NCBI GenBank assembly: GCA_965652145.1
Contig: CBFGTV010000051.1
Span: forward strand, 1 to 24,963
Length of the DNA: 24,963 nucleotides
Origin: an uncultured Clostridiaceae bacterium
GTDB taxonomy: Bacteria > Bacillota > Clostridia > Peptostreptococcales > Natronincolaceae
Direction of reading: 5' to 3'
In this document: positions 20,150-23,714 of the stretch, piece by piece
How the letters are laid out: every line of letters starts with the position of its first letter
Position numbering within the stretch: position 1 is the stretch's first letter
Program-made: the position numbers and the translations under genes
Notes under the pieces: model-generated
Told to the model about the DNA's origin: nothing
Seen by the model: the letters and a program-made list of their open reading frames with translations, nothing else
Databases searched by the model: none

Positions 20150-21382
20150 TTATCCTTTAACAACGCCAATTGTTTTAAGCCGCTTTAAAGGTTTCACCAA
20201 ATCTCTTTGGTTTTCCATTACCTCATCAATGTCCTTATAGGCAAAACGGCTTTCTTCAGGTACATCCTTTTTACTGTGCTTTCCTAAAATAACACCTTGG
20301 CTTTTTAAGTCAACCATCACCTGTTCCACAGTAAACTCCTTCATAGCGGCAGTGCGGGAAAATTGTCTACCAGCTCCATGGGAAGATGTATGAAAGCTCA
20401 TTTCATTTCCCAGGCCTTCTACTACGTAGCTATAGGAGCCCATGGCACCGGGGATAACTGCCGGCTCTCCCTGCCTTGCTCTGGTGGCTCCCTTTCGATG
20501 TACCCATACATTCTTTTCATAATGATGTTCCAGGGAGGCATAGTTATGATGACAGTTAATCTCTTGGGTGTAAGAAAAATTTATTTTAGTAAATTTTTTA
20601 ATATATTTCTCAAGAATCCCTTTGACAGTATCCATAATATGGGCTCGATTTTCCATAGCAAAATCTAAGGCCAGCTCCATCCAATGAATATATTGCTTGC
20701 CATCCTCTGTATCAACAGGCAAAAAGGCAAGCTGATGGTGATCTGGCACCATGGAATACCACTTTTTATTTAATTCCCTTGCTCTGTTATGAAAGTATTC
20801 GCAAATTTGCTTTCCAAGGTTACGGCTCCCCGTATGGACCATGATGCCGAGAAACCCCTCATCATCCACCTGAAGCTCAATAAAATGATTTCCTCCGCCC
20901 AAGGTCCCTACTTGAAAATAACCTCTTTCAATATGCTGTATCAGCTCAAGATTGCCCTGATATTTGTCTAATTCCTGCTTGGCTTGATCCAGGGTTCTAC
21001 ATAATTGTGCTTTTTTGTGATGGTTGAAACCCACTGGAACGTTTCTAAGAATATCTCCTATCATGGCCTGAATCAGACCTCCGTTTCCAGTATGTATATC
21101 CTTAATGTCATCTACCAAAAGATCGGTACCGATAAATCCCATGCCACAGCCAATGTCTACCCCTACAGCATTGGGAATAATCACATTCTCAGTTGCAATC
21201 ACGCCGCCAATAGGCATGCCTTTTCCCGTATGGGTATCGGGCATTAGTATTACCCATTTATGTAAAAATGGCAAATTGGCCAGGTTATATGCCTGTTCAA
21301 GGCATCCTTCTTCTAAATTACTTTCATCGGGCAGCCATATTTTAATAGGTACTTTTGTTTTTTCATTAGAAATGACAAACAT
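20150..21382 (-). CDS. rtcB: RtcB RNA ligase (3'-phosphate/2',3'-cyclic-phosphate RNA ligase)
   Basis: 410 aa with the RtcB hallmarks: DTHTGKG, DIGCGMG, GGGNHFIE, HRKGATRA, PGAMGSYSYVV and SSHGAGRQ (metal- and GTP-binding His/Cys). Confidence 0.9.
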   Translation of the reverse strand: MFVISNEKTKVPIKIWLPDESNLEEGCLEQAYNLANLPFLHKWVILMPDTHTGKGMPIGGVIATENVIIPNAVGVDIGCGMGFIGTDLLVDDIKDIHTGNGGLIQAMIGDILRNVPVGFNHHKKAQLCRTLDQAKQELDKYQGNLELIQHIERGYFQVGTLGGGNHFIELQVDDEGFLGIMVHTGSRNLGKQICEYFHNRARELNKKWYSMVPDHHQLAFLPVDTEDGKQYIHWMELALDFAMENRAHIMDTVKGILEKYIKKFTKINFSYTQEINCHHNYASLEHHYEKNVWVHRKGATRARQGEPAVIPGAMGSYSYVVEGLGNEMSFHTSSHGAGRQFSRTAAMKEFTVEQVMVDLKSQGVILGKHSKKDVPEESRFAYKDIDEVMENQRDLVKPLKRLKTIGVVKG

Positions 21383-21438
21383 ATAATCCTCTCCTTTTGT
21401 GCCTATGTATTTGCTTGCATTTAGAATAGCATAGGTCG

Positions 21439-21453
21439 AATGATTGAATCATT
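21439..21453. promoter_or_regulatory. Perfect 15-bp palindrome AATGATTgAATCATT in the divergent rtcB / WYL-pair intergenic region
   Basis: Seen directly in the sequence. An outer imperfect inverted repeat CCTATG (21402-21407) / CATAGG (21430-21435) is also present. It lies about 60 bp upstream of the plus-strand ATG at 21515 and about 55 bp upstream of the rtcB start. Confidence 0.45.
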
Positions 21454-21514
21454 TAAAAAAGTTTGCGAACATAATTAAACTAGATTAAAATGAAAATAAT
21501 GGGAGGGCTTAATT

Positions 21515-22750
21515 ATGGCAGGATTTAGTGAACTGATAAGAAATTTTGATAAAATAAGGGACTATATGAGGGATTTTTACATCTATGGTTTCAAGTCTCG
21601 CTCCCAGTTTAAAAGAAAATCATCGAGAAGTTATGACAATGAAAAACGTAGAATTGAGAGCTATTTAGGTGATTATATGAGGTGGGGATATAACCGCAAT
21701 GGAAAAAATACTGTTATCTCCCTTGATTCATCTCAAATTAAAACGAACCCCCTTTATGCTGCTTGGAAGTCAAAAAGCTTTACTAATAACGATATAATAC
21801 TCCATTTTTATCTGCTGGATGCTTTTCAAGGTAAGGGCTCCTTTTCTGTCAATGAATTGACTGAATCAATCAGTAAGAAGAGTGGTGTAACCTTTGATGC
21901 CCAGACTGTTCGCAATAAATGTGTAGAATACCACAGGGCAGGACTACTTTTAAGGGGGCAGAGGGGAAAAATTGTTTTTTACAGTCTGTCTCCGCTTTAT
22001 TTTAAAGACCTGGTAGCGGATATGTCTCTATTAGGGGTTGGAGTGAAGTTTTTCCATGAGGCAGCTCTATTTGGAGAAATCGGCAGCTTTATTCTGGATA
22101 ATGAAGTGGATGGCAATGAGCTTTTCACATTTCAACATCACTACATTGTCCACACCCTAGAAGATGGAATGCTGTTTGAAATTTTAAAAGCGATGCATGA
22201 AAATAGGAAAATCTGTTTTCAAAACTTTAGTGAAAAAGTGGAACGCTTAACTACCCATGAGGGGATTCCCTTAAAAATATTTATTAGTGCAGCAACGGGA
22301 AGAAGGTATGTCTGTTTGTATATGGTTAAGCGCGGGCGTTTTTCCTGCTTCAGGTTAGATTATATCAAATCAGTTCAATTGCTTGAGGTCTATTCCGAGG
22401 CAAAGGATATGAAGAAAAAGCTTGATAACAACCTTGACCAAATATGGGGTGTCAGTTTCGGAGGTAGGAATCGATGTGATCAGCTGATTATGAAGTTGTG
22501 GATTGATGAAAGGAAGGAGACCTACGTAATTGATCGAATCAATCGAGAGGGCAGGGGCGGCAGTCTTGAAAGGATAGGCCCCAACACCTTTTTATATACA
22601 AAGAAATGCTTTGATGCAACGGAAATGACCCCCTGGATCAAAACCTTTACGGGCCGAATACTAAAACTGGAATCTAACAATCAAGAGGTAATTGATCGAT
22701 TTAACCAGGATATGACCTCTTTATATCAAATGTATTGGGGAAGTGAATAA
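21515..22750 (+). CDS. Putative WYL-domain-containing regulator/sensor, first of a coupled pair
   Basis: 411 aa. The segment GRRYVCLYMVKRGRFSCFRLDYIKSVQLLEV resembles the WYL-domain core (aromatic-Y-L ... R-F-R-L-D-R/Y-I). RBS GGGAGGG precedes the ATG. No convincing HTH was found by eye. The stop overlaps the next ORF by 8 nt. Confidence 0.4.
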   Translation: MAGFSELIRNFDKIRDYMRDFYIYGFKSRSQFKRKSSRSYDNEKRRIESYLGDYMRWGYNRNGKNTVISLDSSQIKTNPLYAAWKSKSFTNNDIILHFYLLDAFQGKGSFSVNELTESISKKSGVTFDAQTVRNKCVEYHRAGLLLRGQRGKIVFYSLSPLYFKDLVADMSLLGVGVKFFHEAALFGEIGSFILDNEVDGNELFTFQHHYIVHTLEDGMLFEILKAMHENRKICFQNFSEKVERLTTHEGIPLKIFISAATGRRYVCLYMVKRGRFSCFRLDYIKSVQLLEVYSEAKDMKKKLDNNLDQIWGVSFGGRNRCDQLIMKLWIDERKETYVIDRINREGRGGSLERIGPNTFLYTKKCFDATEMTPWIKTFTGRILKLESNNQEVIDRFNQDMTSLYQMYWGSE

Positions 22751-23714
22751 GATGGAGTTGTTTTCTGAAATATACAGCTGTTATTTTAAAGCCATGAGAA
22801 GAGTTTTAGAAGAGGCTGGAAAAAAAGCCTTTATGACCTATCAAGAAATATCAGCTATTATTAACGAAACTGCTTTTTCTGACAGTGGCTTTTTTATGAT
22901 GCCCCTTTTAGAAAAGGAATGGCATTTCTTTGAGAAGCAGGAGGATTACTTTTTCTCTAAATTGGGTTCCAACAGCTTTTTACTTCCTATGACACGTCTA
23001 CAACAGGCTTGGCTTAAGGCGTTACTTGAGGATAAAAGGGTTAAGCTGTTTTTAGATCAGAATGAAATCACTCTGTTAACGAAGGCTCTGGCTGATGTAC
23101 CTCCTCTTTTTACCTCAAAGGATATTTATATCTTTGACCAGGCCACTGATGGAGATCCCTATGATGATCCCTGCTATATTCATATTTTCCGTGGGCTTGT
23201 AGATGGGATCAGAAGCCAATCTATACTTAAGCTGAAATATAACAGCGGCAAAGGTAATCGAAGCTGTCATCATTATTTACCCCAGCAGTTAAACTATTCT
23301 TCAAAGGATGATAAATTCCGAATGCTTGGCCTCCAAGTGAAAAAAGGTCAATATGAGCCTGTCATATTAAATGTGGCTCGAATTGAGGCGCTTTACCCTA
23401 CAAATATCCCTTACAACCCCAATTGGTACCATAGAAAGAAAAGGGCCCTCAGTCCTCTGGTTCTAAGAATTTATAAAGGGCGCAATGCCCTGGAGCGGTG
23501 CATGCTTCAATTCGCTTCAATGGAAAAGGAAACGGAATATGAAGAGGAAACAGATACTTATCTATGCAGGATTTATTACGATATTCAGGATGAAATGGAA
23601 CTTTTAATTAGGGTCTTGAGCTTTGGCCCTGTAGTTCAGGTTTTGGGGCCGGAAAAATTTTTAAACCAAATGAAAGAAAAAATCAAATTGCAGATGACGC
23701 TGACTGATGGGTGA
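22743..23714 (+). CDS. Putative WYL-domain-containing protein, second of a coupled pair
   Basis: 323 aa. NRSCHHYLPQQLNYSSKDDKFRMLGLQVKKGQYEPVILNVARIEALYP fits the WYL pattern (R..h.LP..L.Y...d.F.l.g....e..l.v.RI..l). The start overlaps the upstream gene, suggesting a PafB/PafC-like heteromeric pair. Confidence 0.45.
   Translation: MNKMELFSEIYSCYFKAMRRVLEEAGKKAFMTYQEISAIINETAFSDSGFFMMPLLEKEWHFFEKQEDYFFSKLGSNSFLLPMTRLQQAWLKALLEDKRVKLFLDQNEITLLTKALADVPPLFTSKDIYIFDQATDGDPYDDPCYIHIFRGLVDGIRSQSILKLKYNSGKGNRSCHHYLPQQLNYSSKDDKFRMLGLQVKKGQYEPVILNVARIEALYPTNIPYNPNWYHRKKRALSPLVLRIYKGRNALERCMLQFASMEKETEYEEETDTYLCRIYYDIQDEMELLIRVLSFGPVVQVLGPEKFLNQMKEKIKLQMTLTDG

Follow-up and report, generated by a model that had tools for sequence, protein, structure and literature searches.

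A divergent pair of putative WYL-domain regulators beside an rtcB, tRNA-like RNA and SPFH gene locus in an uncultured Clostridiaceae bacterium

Introduction

In the enterobacterial RtcR-RtcBA system, the operon for the RNA 3'-phosphate/5'-OH ligase RtcB and its partner, the cyclase RtcA, lies beside a dedicated regulator, RtcR, which combines a predicted oligonucleotide-sensing CARF domain with a sigma-54 AAA+ module and an HTH. The rtc locus of Pseudomonas aeruginosa holds an SPFH gene together with rtcA, rtcB, and RtcR (PMC13086221). Burroughs and Aravind (2016) predicted an RNA-repair module composed of RtcB, a Band-7/SPFH protein, and a tRNA-like RNA termed 'b7a-tRNA', as their work is described in bioRxiv 10.1101/312249. 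Later papers from the Aravind laboratory credit the same study with WYL transcription factors governing RNA-repair pathways (PMC9503650, PMC7824862), and the idea of WYL control of RNA repair is thus already partly in the literature and not wholly new.

Among WYL regulators, PafBC of Actinobacteria is encoded by two adjacent paralogous HTH-WYL-WCX genes at the Pup-proteasome locus, which are naturally fused into a single chain in some organisms, such as Arthrobacter. PafBC controls DNA repair from an asymmetric site placed at a fixed distance from a TAnnnT -10 element in promoters that lack a -35 element; its RecA-NDp site reads TGTCGGTG-N8-TAnnnT. DriD of Caulobacter, CapW, and BrxR share the HTH-WYL-WCX architecture and adjoin stress or defence operons, but act as homodimers. 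Here we describe a locus in a window of 24,963 nt, the whole stretch of DNA analysed, in which two putative WYL regulators, WYLA and WYLB, diverge from rtcB.

Results and Discussion

rtcB is followed by a tRNA-like RNA and an SPFH gene

The features of the locus are collected in Table 1. A sequence-only reading of this DNA had placed rtcB alone, without rtcA or rtcR, divergent from two overlapping ORFs of 411 and 323 aa. The coordinates, the 411-aa and mechanical 323-aa lengths, and the divergence all stand, but the overlap hinges on a GTG start for WYLB, which would give 8 nt. The TAA stop codon of WYLA occupies 22748-22750, and we favour the WYLB ATG at 22752, which starts 1 nt later, because it is the NCBI start of an identical protein and agrees with homologue alignments. 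The two genes therefore appear tightly packed, with no overlap required. As had been claimed, neither RtcA nor RtcR was found in the window; nor was archease. The sole sigma-54 activator in the window (15410-18358) is of the LevR type: it has PRD and EIIA domains, lacks a CARF domain, and adjoins a PTS operon. By contrast, the description of rtcB as standing alone was wrong, since first a structured tRNA-like RNA and then an SPFH gene come after it. The SPFH protein likely starts at the ATG at 19704, given that alignments with its homologues begin near residue 20 of the mechanical ORF.

Table 1. Positions of the features of the rtcB-WYL locus in the window
Feature	Position	Strand	Evidence or remark
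SPFH/Band-7 protein, mechanical ORF of 389 aa	18589-19758	-	Pfam Band_7 E 7.2e-25
Terminator-like hairpin and T-run, after the RNA and ahead of the probable SPFH start	19725-19743	-	Consensus scan only
Region of structured non-coding RNA, from rtcB to SPFH gene (approximate ends)	19760-20140	-	MFE -131.5 kcal/mol, z -2.98 vs shuffles
Second tRNA-like module, normal order	19910-19990	-	Rfam tRNA 19.4 bits, E 0.16-0.24, under gathering score
Circularly permuted tRNA-like module, YrlA type	19979-20055	-	Covariance model R1 68.9 bits, E 1.4e-20
rtcB, 410 aa, first gene of the putative target operon	20150-21382	-	Pfam RtcB E 1.2e-114, full length
-10 hexamer of rtcB promoter, TATTCT	21423-21428	-	Extended TG at 21431-21430
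Perfect 15-bp palindrome AATGATTgAATCATT	21439-21453		See text
Conserved asymmetric 23-nt motif, GTTCGCAAACTTTTTTAAATGAT read towards rtcB, candidate WYL-pair site	21448-21470	-	39/39 rtcB-WYLA intergenic regions
Promoter-like site for WYL genes: TTGCGA, 17 nt, TAAAAT	21463-21491	+	Consensus scan, 9/12; -35 lies within the 23-nt motif
WYLA, 411 aa	21515-22750	+	AlphaFold2 pLDDT 69; Foldseek DriD E 7e-11, PafBC E 1.5e-10, then BrxR, CapW, WYL1
WYLB, 320 aa (mechanical ORF 323 aa, 22743-23714)	22752-23714	+	AlphaFold2 pLDDT 87; Foldseek DriD E 6e-10, PafBC E 4e-9

The arrangement recurs. In most related genomes, the WYL pair diverges from rtcB or an equivalent RNA-repair operon, and rtcB orthologues that are 61-75% identical hold the same position in 52/80 related loci. 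rtcB co-occurs with the WYL pair at 57 of the 80 loci, and 69/80 encode RtcB, SPFH, or DUF2828-vWA, alone or in combination. SPFH genes are present at 36/80 loci, with orthologues downstream of rtcB at 32/80, and DUF2828 plus DUF7788 form an alternative partner at 13/80. TROVE (Ro60/Rsr) proteins are absent; SPFH takes the partner role here, and DUF2828-vWA does so at other loci. Four loci with full flanks carry a WYL pair with neither RNA-repair genes nor the 23-nt motif within 6 kb.

The intervening RNA contains a permuted tRNA-like module and a putative second one

Every one of the 29 loci with both rtcB and SPFH has between one and four T-arm-like hairpins in this region. A mechanical 94-aa ORF inside the structured RNA (19810-20094) has no Pfam match and is probably not a gene. 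The permuted module runs from an outer 'anticodon-like' stem through the T-arm, a closed acceptor-like hairpin, and UA to the D-arm. Across 27 sequences, 88.7% of cells pair, compared with 36-47% when the pairing partners are slid, and compensatory changes occur in 15/18 pairs of the four helices. The covariation score of 0.636, against 0.18, was reached by 0/500 shuffles. Moreover, the covariance model matches loci outside its building set. The putative second module consists of a D-arm (GCAGCUCAGUUGGUAGAGC), a conserved AAAUGGUAAG stretch, a hairpin, and a T-arm (GUGGUUCGAAUCCAC); this second T-arm shows compensatory stem changes at many loci.

The permuted module resembles YrlA (RF02553) in enclosing a T-arm, closed acceptor-like hairpin, and D-arm within an outer stem, and in the proximity of RtcB. 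It differs from the YrlA RNAs of Rsr/Ro60 operons in that no Ro60/Rsr gene accompanies it and in that the Rfam YrlA model gives the window RNA 20.4 bits, short of the gathering score of 69, which nothing in the window or in 11 related loci reached. The encoding of RtcB, SPFH/Band-7, and a tRNA-like RNA together, with adjacent synteny at 32/80 loci, matches the 'b7a-tRNA' system. Compared with that system as described in bioRxiv 10.1101/312249, this locus has a permuted YrlA-type RNA module and a second module rather than a plain tRNA look-alike.

WYLA and WYLB are predicted HTH-WYL-WCX transcription factors

The claim that both ORFs encode WYL proteins was confirmed, and the peptides on which it had been based fall within the WYL-domain matches. 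In WYLA, a highly conserved stretch of about 90 N-terminal aa (low-confidence AlphaFold2 prediction, pLDDT <50) precedes a winged HTH (about 91-158), a WYL domain (219-292), and a WCX domain (322-408). WYLB comprises a winged HTH (1-70), WYL (159-216), and WCX (236-319). Profile searches supported these assignments. For WYLA, the Pfam WYL match (residues 220-288) has E 4e-4 and 20.8 bits, where the curated cut-off is 21.8, the PADLOC WYL match has E 1.6e-4, and residues 110-170 weakly match ArsR and AspA winged helices. For WYLB, PADLOC WYL matches residues 147-315 with E 8.5e-7, and Pfam WCX has E 0.017, below cut-off. The HTH regions of both AlphaFold2 models (WYLA 91-158, WYLB 1-70) have the secondary structure H-H-H-beta-beta, and both proteins align full-length with DriD, PafBC, BrxR, and CapW in Foldseek. 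A 320-aa protein 100% identical to WYLB carries the name 'WYL domain-containing protein [Alkaliphilus crotonatoxidans]', and many of the 2097 WYLA homologues go by the same generic name. Many homologues carry PF13280. The homologues come chiefly from Clostridia, Lachnospiraceae, and other Bacillota. On profile and model evidence together, WYLA and WYLB are full-length HTH-WYL-WCX transcription factors. The N-terminal 90 aa, the most conserved part of WYLA, parallel the near-invariance of the motif described below.

The two genes are adjacent in 79/80 related genome loci, and at least six distinct clusters of proteins from other organisms have WYLA and WYLB fused in one polypeptide; six representative fusions of 728-855 aa each contain a complete WYLA-WYLB with differing linkers. 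This adjacency and these natural fusions support a heteromeric regulator, and the PafB/PafC-like gene pair proposed earlier is indeed a conserved pair. WYLA and WYLB thus probably work as one PafBC-like unit. Invariant basic-loop residues lie in and near the beta4/beta5 loop of both WYL domains (WYLA R263, R264, R280, and D282; WYLB K188, R190, N207, and R210); the PafBC WYL loop likewise keeps conserved basic residues and bears essential arginines (PMC6789036). The likeness to PafBC has limits: sequence orthology is not detectable, and the WYL region alone aligns (PDB profile E 0.24); WYLA bears the extra conserved N-terminal region; the host belongs to the Clostridia; and the genes lie outside a Pup-proteasome locus, no proteasome genes being found in the window.

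Instead of transcription factors, the pair could be, like WYL1 of Cas13d systems, RNA-binding accessory subunits of the RtcB, tRNA-like RNA, and SPFH machinery. The Sm-like fold of WYL and the ferredoxin-like fold of WCX are both characteristic of RNA binders (PMC6789036), and the structural matches include WYL1 (6oaw). We consider this very unlikely, given the N-terminal winged helices, the full-length alignment with DNA-bound transcription factors, the divergent orientation of WYL genes that in some genomes lie kilobases from the operon, and the co-occurrence of the proteins with a conserved DNA motif at a fixed promoter geometry.

A conserved asymmetric motif marks the rtcB promoter

In the rtcB promoter, the 23-nt motif covers positions from about -54 to -32. 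Its PWM has at most one match in 79/80 loci and two in the remaining one, with a single match in the window. In genomes where the WYL genes lie kilobases from the operon, the motif stays with rtcB, and at eight loci with separated WYL genes it keeps 50-170 nt upstream. In the reverse test, where 80 loci were picked by the motif alone, RtcB, SPFH, or DUF2828 lay downstream in 55/64, and the WYL pair was found in 16/17 with enough flank. On this co-occurrence of protein and motif, the latter is probably the binding site of the WYL pair. Its conserved half-sites, TTCGCAA and AAATGAT, bear no relation to one another, a property compatible with two different DNA-binding domains. The site, GTTCGCAA-N8-AAATGAT, differs from that of PafBC, and its non-repeat nature, with two distinct putative subunits, also sets the locus apart from the homodimers DriD, CapW, and BrxR.

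The motif is phased with the promoter. Information for TAnnnT peaks at 1.7-1.8 bits at a fixed 18 nt past the motif in 70 distinct sequences, and the spacer in the window is 19 nt. This -10 element is of the sigma-70 type, unlike the RtcR-RtcBA promoter; sigma-54 -24/-12 elements were checked by eye only. The promoter lacks a good -35 element, the position reading ATGATT (3/6). On the opposite strand, a WYL-side -10 at the spacing of the promoter-like site in Table 1 occurs in 22/55 sequences with WYLA adjacent and in 5/15 without it. Because it is no more frequent beside WYLA, we do not regard this site as a conserved feature.

The intergenic palindrome had been put forward as the likely operator. 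It does exist, with a right arm formed by the end of the conserved motif. However, its left arm, AATGATT, sits in the non-conserved, low-information spacer, it is not conserved across 38 other related intergenic regions, and arms of at least 7 arose in 413/5000 (8.3%) dinucleotide shuffles of the 132-nt intergenic region. A symmetric-dimer operator at this position is accordingly rejected as having next to no likelihood, the palindrome being within chance expectation.

We favour, with moderate confidence, a model in which a WYLA/WYLB heteromer activates the rtcB operon in response to a nucleic-acid damage signal. The two divergent paralogues would act jointly, as PafBC does, at the asymmetric 23-bp site of a promoter with a TAnnnT -10 and no good -35, and would thereby control the leftward operon of rtcB, tRNA-like RNA, and SPFH. 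A single-stranded nucleic-acid fragment arising from RNA or DNA damage may bind the WYL domains and turn the operon on. Binding of the motif by the pair, the sign of regulation, and the ligand are all inferred. Ligand-dependent activation is the more likely sign because of the fixed phase between site and -10, the missing -35, and the activator function of the closest structural relatives, DriD and PafBC.

The site covers the -35 position and includes a T6-7/A3 tract reminiscent of an UP element, so that a role as repressor site on a strong promoter would fit it equally well. The same pair would then block the -35 and UP regions of a constitutively strong promoter until ligand released it and de-repressed the operon. 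BrxR and CapW, which belong to the same class and are full-length structural matches, are repressors, and Aravind-laboratory papers regard WYL one-component regulators as negative regulators (PMC9503650). We nevertheless think repression unlikely: the poor -35 and the strict 18-nt phase are typical of activator-dependent promoters, the best structural matches are activators, and the characterised repressors of the class are homodimers, whereas the site here is asymmetric.

The putative signal and its relation to RtcR

With activation by the heteromer as the preferred reading, the nature of the ligand can be considered. The pair may sense single-stranded DNA, as PafBC, DriD, and CapW do, and so bring the RtcB operon into the DNA-damage response. 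These three characterised WYL factors bind ssDNA (PMC11804915; PDB titles), and in Salmonella, DNA-damaging agents switch on the rsr-yrlBA-rtcBA operon. Its proximal signal, however, is tRNA fragments and not DNA (PMC7790460 for both observations). The conserved targets of the pair moreover all act on or mimic RNA, namely RtcB, the tRNA-like RNA, and SPFH or DUF2828-vWA, so that the putative target is RNA repair, where that of PafBC is DNA repair. WYL1 of Cas13d systems, for its part, reportedly binds ssRNA. We therefore hold DNA-damage sensing to be a doubtful, though still arguable, alternative.

The arrangement recalls the RtcR-RtcBA system, in which the RtcB operon likewise neighbours a regulator of its own that carries a domain predicted to sense oligonucleotides. 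Here that domain is WYL, and control of the adjoining operon by the pair, as in DriD, CapW, and BrxR, is putative. The proposed exchange of WYL for CARF is supported as plausible; in P. aeruginosa, too, SPFH shares a locus with rtcB, there under RtcR's CARF-based system. Tentatively, the pair may be the first WYL-domain RNA-damage sensor: a PafBC-like heterodimer that would bind cleaved RNA ends, replace the missing -35 contact, and induce a repair module of RtcB, tRNA mimic, and SPFH. The ligand could be pieces of tRNAs or of the tRNA mimic encoded in the operon itself, which would serve as decoy or sentinel. If true, this circuit would be a Gram-positive functional counterpart of CARF-RtcR made from unrelated parts.

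The WYL genes and the operon opposite them

ORF calling in the window placed rtcB and the two divergent ORFs, termed WYLA and WYLB, where the sequence-only reading had put them, with an rtcB-WYLA intergenic region of 132 nt. The overlap between WYLA and WYLB claimed in that reading amounts to 8 nt if WYLB begins at the mechanically called GTG. We favour instead the ATG one base past the WYLA stop codon, because it is the NCBI start of an identical protein and agrees with homologue alignments; GGGGAAG precedes this ATG. WYLB shares 100% identity with an NCBI protein of Alkaliphilus crotonatoxidans, which marks this species, or one very closely related, as the source of the window. 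The claimed absence of rtcA and rtcR was borne out, with no RtcA, RtcR or archease among the window proteins. By contrast, rtcB does not stand alone as had been supposed: a structured tRNA-like RNA and an SPFH/Band-7 gene were found downstream of it, the gap between rtcB and the SPFH gene being ≈390-445 nt.

Features of the rtcB-WYL region of the window
Feature	Position	Strand or reading	Remark
SPFH/Band-7 gene	18589-19758, probable start ATG 19704	-	Pfam Band_7 E 7.2e-25
Structured tandem tRNA-like RNA region	19760-20140, core 19979-20055	-	between rtcB and SPFH
Second tRNA-like module, normal order (D-arm, AAAUGGUAAG, hairpin, T-arm)	~19910-19990	-	follows permuted module
rtcB	20150-21382	-	Pfam RtcB E 1.2e-114
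Asymmetric 23-nt motif	21448-21470	plus-strand reading ATCATTTAAAAAAGTTTGCGAAC	kept in 39/39 intergenic regions
WYLA	21515-22750	+	411-aa ORF
WYLB	ends 23714; mechanical start GTG 22743, favoured start ATG 22752	+	second ORF

The other genes of the window are metabolic or concern transport: nitrogenase-like genes, an iron ABC transporter, Fur, ferritin and a PTS operon. Positions 1892-8451 (minus strand) encode two nitrogenase-component-1-like proteins, a NifH-like protein, a flavodoxin and an iron-siderophore-type ABC transporter (FecCD, binding protein, ATPase), with an AraC regulator, ferritin and Fur near the nitrogenase-like cluster. Upstream of a PTS cluster at 12562-15358 (PTS EIIC-GAT/EIIA, KDPG-aldolase and enolase-superfamily genes) lies a LevR-type sigma-54 activator (Sigma54_activat, PRD, EIIA-man, EIIA_2; 15410-18358, minus strand), which is unrelated to RtcR despite its sigma-54 domain. 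The window ends (1-1500 and 23715-24963) have a G+C content of 0.26-0.30 compared to ≈0.42 elsewhere and contain small ORFs without family matches, and the ORF at 24157-24834 has a hydrophobic, signal-peptide-like N-terminus.

Conservation of the locus was assessed in 80 loci from species-representative genomes, picked through WYLA alone. The proposed association of rtcB with the WYL genes holds in relatives, where RtcB is present in 57 of the 80 loci and at least one of RtcB, SPFH and a DUF2828-vWA protein in 69. Seven of the 11 loci lacking all three have <2.8 kb of upstream flank. Four loci (L020, L031, L044 and L061) carry the WYL pair with full 6-kb flanks and no conserved motif (described below), RtcB, SPFH or DUF2828 nearby; their target may lie elsewhere in the genome, or the pair may have another role. 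The ≈505-aa DUF2828 + DUF7788 (vWA-like) protein replaces or joins SPFH in 13 of the 80 loci, behind the same motif (for example, L042 4067-5578, L047 4122-5636, L034 3898-5463 and L069 2337-3803). Its layout of a helical domain plus vWA recalls Ro60; searches of the protein against PDB and NCBIfam gave zero matches and no sequence link to Ro60, and nothing relevant on DUF2828/TROVE was found in the literature. In L042 alone, the DUF2828 gene has a YicC-like endoribonuclease gene (3064-3960) directly behind it on the same strand.

A circularly permuted tRNA-like module between rtcB and SPFH

The order rtcB, gap, SPFH recurs in 29 loci with gaps of 430-920 nt. Standard models scarcely recognize the RNA: the window region gave sub-threshold Rfam scores only (YrlA 20.4 bits, tRNA 19.4 bits), the Rfam gathering score was reached by nothing in the window or at the RNA position of 11 related loci, and ARAGORN called no tRNA in the window and three dubious ones among 30 gaps. 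Nevertheless, all rtcB-SPFH gaps hold one to four T-arm-like hairpins (GGTTCRAWTCC) with compensatory stem changes. What they have in common is a core module of the YrlA type, tRNA-like and circularly permuted, which runs from an outer stem through five unpaired bases, a T-arm, a closed acceptor-like hairpin, UA and a D-arm to the return strand of the outer stem. In an alignment of 27 modules, 88.7% of cells pair, compared to 36-47% when the partners are slid, and compensatory changes occur in 15 of the 18 pairs. The covariation score of 0.636 (0.18 in shuffles) was reached by none of 500 shuffles. A covariance model made from this alignment matched the window core with 68.9 bits and also matched loci outside its training set (L074, 78.5 bits; L072, 73.7; L045, 68.5; L069, 59.8), in all cases on the strand of the target operon. 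DUF2828 loci have a more divergent tRNA-like RNA directly behind the promoter, in front of the DUF2828 gene.

A 94-aa ORF (19810-20094) inside the RNA has no family match and is probably spurious. A terminator-like hairpin with a T-run (19725-19743, minus strand) separates the RNA from the probable SPFH start, and none of the candidate SPFH starts in the window has a clear Shine-Dalgarno sequence before it. Genuine tRNA gene clusters (Rfam 60-69 bits) directly follow SPFH on the same strand in two loci (L078 2156-2663; L079 2467-2690).

WYLA and WYLB are predicted HTH-WYL-WCX regulators that occur as a pair

The peptide segments originally taken as WYL cores fall within Pfam and PADLOC matches that are weak and correctly placed. 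WYLA matched Pfam WYL with E 4e-4, one bit below the cut-off, and PADLOC WYL with E 1.6e-4, while WYLB matched PADLOC WYL with E 8.5e-7 and Pfam WCX with E 0.017. Profile searches of both proteins against PDB returned marginal matches in the WYL region only (PafBC, E 0.24; BrxR, E 0.58); ubiquitin and MARK-kinase matches were dismissed as noise. AlphaFold2 models resolve a winged HTH, WYL and WCX domain at residues 1-70, 159-216 and 236-319 of WYLB (pLDDT 87) and at residues ≈91-158, 219-292 and 322-408 of WYLA (pLDDT 69). When these models were compared to PDB with Foldseek, the top matches of both were all HTH-WYL-WCX regulators aligned over their full length: DriD (E 7e-11 for WYLA, 6e-10 for WYLB) and PafBC (E 1.5e-10 and 4e-9), followed by BrxR, CapW and the Cas13d-associated WYL1. 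The WYL assignment thus stands, and on their predicted folds both proteins are full HTH-WYL-WCX transcription factors. In a profile-profile comparison the WYL regions of WYLA and WYLB alone align (E 0.0026); by this measure the two are very distant paralogues. Invariant basic residues lie in and near the WYL beta4/beta5 loop (FRLDYI in WYLA, LNxARI in WYLB), the loop whose arginines are essential in PafBC (PMC6789036).

Both families are large, with 2097 WYLA and 1082 WYLB homologues in a large protein collection, mostly from Clostridia and Lachnospiraceae, many named 'WYL domain-containing protein'. The WYLA family comprises >2000 clusters at 90% identity, many of them found in Lachnospiraceae of the gut and in other Clostridia; species-representative genomes contain at least 590 matching stretches. 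Within WYLA, conservation is highest in the N-terminal ≈90 aa, yet AlphaFold2 models this part with low confidence. Residues 1-90 (window 21515-21784) read FYIYGFKSR...RSYDNEKRRIESYL...NPLYAAWKSKSFT and have no Pfam match. A search with the N-terminal 96 residues against 1.84 billion representative proteins gave 630 matches, N-terminal in every case, and the region is restricted to the N-terminus of the WYLA family (630 representative clusters). One possibility is that it contacts RNA polymerase or provides a second means of binding DNA.

WYLB directly follows WYLA in 79 of the 80 loci, the exception being a truncated contig. Moreover, among the best 150 of the 630 matches, six proteins of 728-855 aa (P0242, P0250, P0263, P0282, P0356 and P0376), known from their protein sequences alone, consist of WYLA and WYLB in this order, each complete, with linkers of ≈5-90 residues and 33-52% identity to the window proteins. 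Because independent natural fusions are a classic sign of subunits of one complex, WYLA and WYLB probably work as a pair and are a candidate heteromer. The crystal structure of PafBC was likewise solved on a natural fusion, from Arthrobacter (PMC6789036). We liken the pair to PafBC in its working and do not regard it as an orthologue, there being no sequence-level orthology; it differs from PafBC in phylum, locus, site and target.

A conserved asymmetric site is fixed to the rtcB promoter

The 15-bp palindrome AATGATTgAATCATT proposed as the operator is present at 21439-21453. Its operator role was rejected: 8.3% of dinucleotide-shuffled versions of the intergenic region contained a comparable palindrome, and the 38 other intergenic regions lack it at the corresponding position. 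Its right arm alone belongs to the 23-nt motif that these regions do conserve, which reads sTTCGCAAC(T)TTTTTTrAAATGAT toward the operon. A position-weight scan found the motif at most once per locus, including a single copy in the 25-kb window, except in L024, where two copies (1890 and 1931) lie 41 nt apart upstream of rtcB.

The motif goes with the operon rather than with the WYL genes. Where other genes part rtcB from the pair (L022, L037, L056, L060, L063, L065, L067 and L072), the motif stays 50-170 nt upstream of rtcB in constant orientation. L071 has its target operon on the downstream side of the pair, and the motif is found there too, inverted. Among 70 distinct sequences, TAnnnT occurs at a fixed 18 nt past the motif, with information peaks of 1.7-1.8 bits; the WYLA side shows no conservation. 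The -10 element in the window is TGcTATTCT (21431-21423), the spacer is 19 nt and the -35 position reads ATGATT; this -10 position and spacer place the motif at about -54 to -32.

An independent sample of 80 loci was obtained by scanning metagenome contigs with TCGCAAMYTTTTTKAAATGA for the motif alone. Where the target-side flank was ≥1.2 kb (64 loci), 55 loci encode RtcB, SPFH or DUF2828 within 1.5 kb on the right strand; where the opposite flank was ≥1.5 kb (59 loci), 42 have a divergent WYLA adjoining the motif; and where both flanks were ≥3 kb (17 loci), 16 contain the pair. Some 10 of the 80 were set aside as chance matches of low-complexity AAATTTTTTT variants that lack a correctly spaced -10 and have unrelated genes, flagellin for example. 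Thus, site, operon and pair are linked in two independent locus samples.

The window also holds a possible WYLA promoter (TTGCGA, 17 nt, TAAAAT). As a general shared divergent promoter with autoregulation, in which TTGCGA would serve as the WYLA -35, this arrangement was rejected, since a right-spaced -10 occurs in 22 of 55 loci with WYLA adjacent compared to 5 of 15 without. We do not claim WYLA autoregulation, because the arrangement is not conserved; a TTGCGA-based promoter could exist as a window-specific possibility only.

A proposed circuit for control of RNA repair

We propose that a WYLA-WYLB heteromer binds the 23-nt site, with separate DNA-binding domains recognizing the two unrelated half-sites, TTCGCAA and AAATGAT. 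On this view, the extreme conservation seen in the WYLA N-terminus would be the counterpart of that seen in the site. On the model of PafBC and DriD, occupancy of the site would activate transcription of the RNA-repair operon, a reading we prefer because the -35 element is missing and the spacing to the -10 is fixed. It is quite possible that the pair acts as a repressor with the same anatomy, given that the T/A tract in the motif resembles an UP element and that BrxR and CapW are repressors. The WYL domains of the pair would sense single-stranded nucleic acid generated by damage. By precedent of PafBC, DriD and CapW, that ligand could be ssDNA rather than RNA.

As an RNA-repair module, the window operon is of the Rtc type and has neither RtcA nor RtcR; it is the system of RtcB, Band-7/SPFH and tRNA-like RNA predicted by Burroughs and Aravind (2016), as told by Wang et al. 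(bioRxiv 10.1101/312249). The pertinent passages of that 2018 preprint note that YrlA-type RNAs sometimes adjoin a Band-7 protein, and describe the predicted tRNA-like RNA as then without experimental validation. Aravind-lab papers, where they touch on the matter, cite Burroughs and Aravind (2016) and Makarova et al. (2014) for WYL and CARF transcription factors which, as sensors of RNA ends or cyclic nucleotides, regulate RNA-repair pathways (PMC9503650, PMC7824862). The sequence-only reading had proposed that WYL substitutes for CARF in the Rtc circuit. A sensor swap, of a WYL pair for CARF-sigma-54 with similar effectors, is a fair description, and the idea already exists in general form. 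Our literature search, which covered Burroughs and Aravind (2016) through citing papers only, found no paper and no experimental work on the pair, the fusions, the 23-nt site or the promoter geometry, and no account of RtcB operon control outside the sigma-54/RtcR paradigm.

The analysis gives a concrete circuit, with a 23-bp site of two distinct half-sites, a fixed promoter geometry, a candidate two-subunit sensor, and a structured RNA with its covariance model. The natural single-chain form of the candidate sensor is convenient for biochemistry. WYL ligands in the work considered here are ssDNA (PafBC, DriD, CapW) and c-di-GMP (a Lactiplantibacillus regulator). If the ligand of the pair is damaged RNA, WYL sensing would be extended beyond these to RNA damage, and the pair would solve independently the problem for which RtcR uses its CARF domain.
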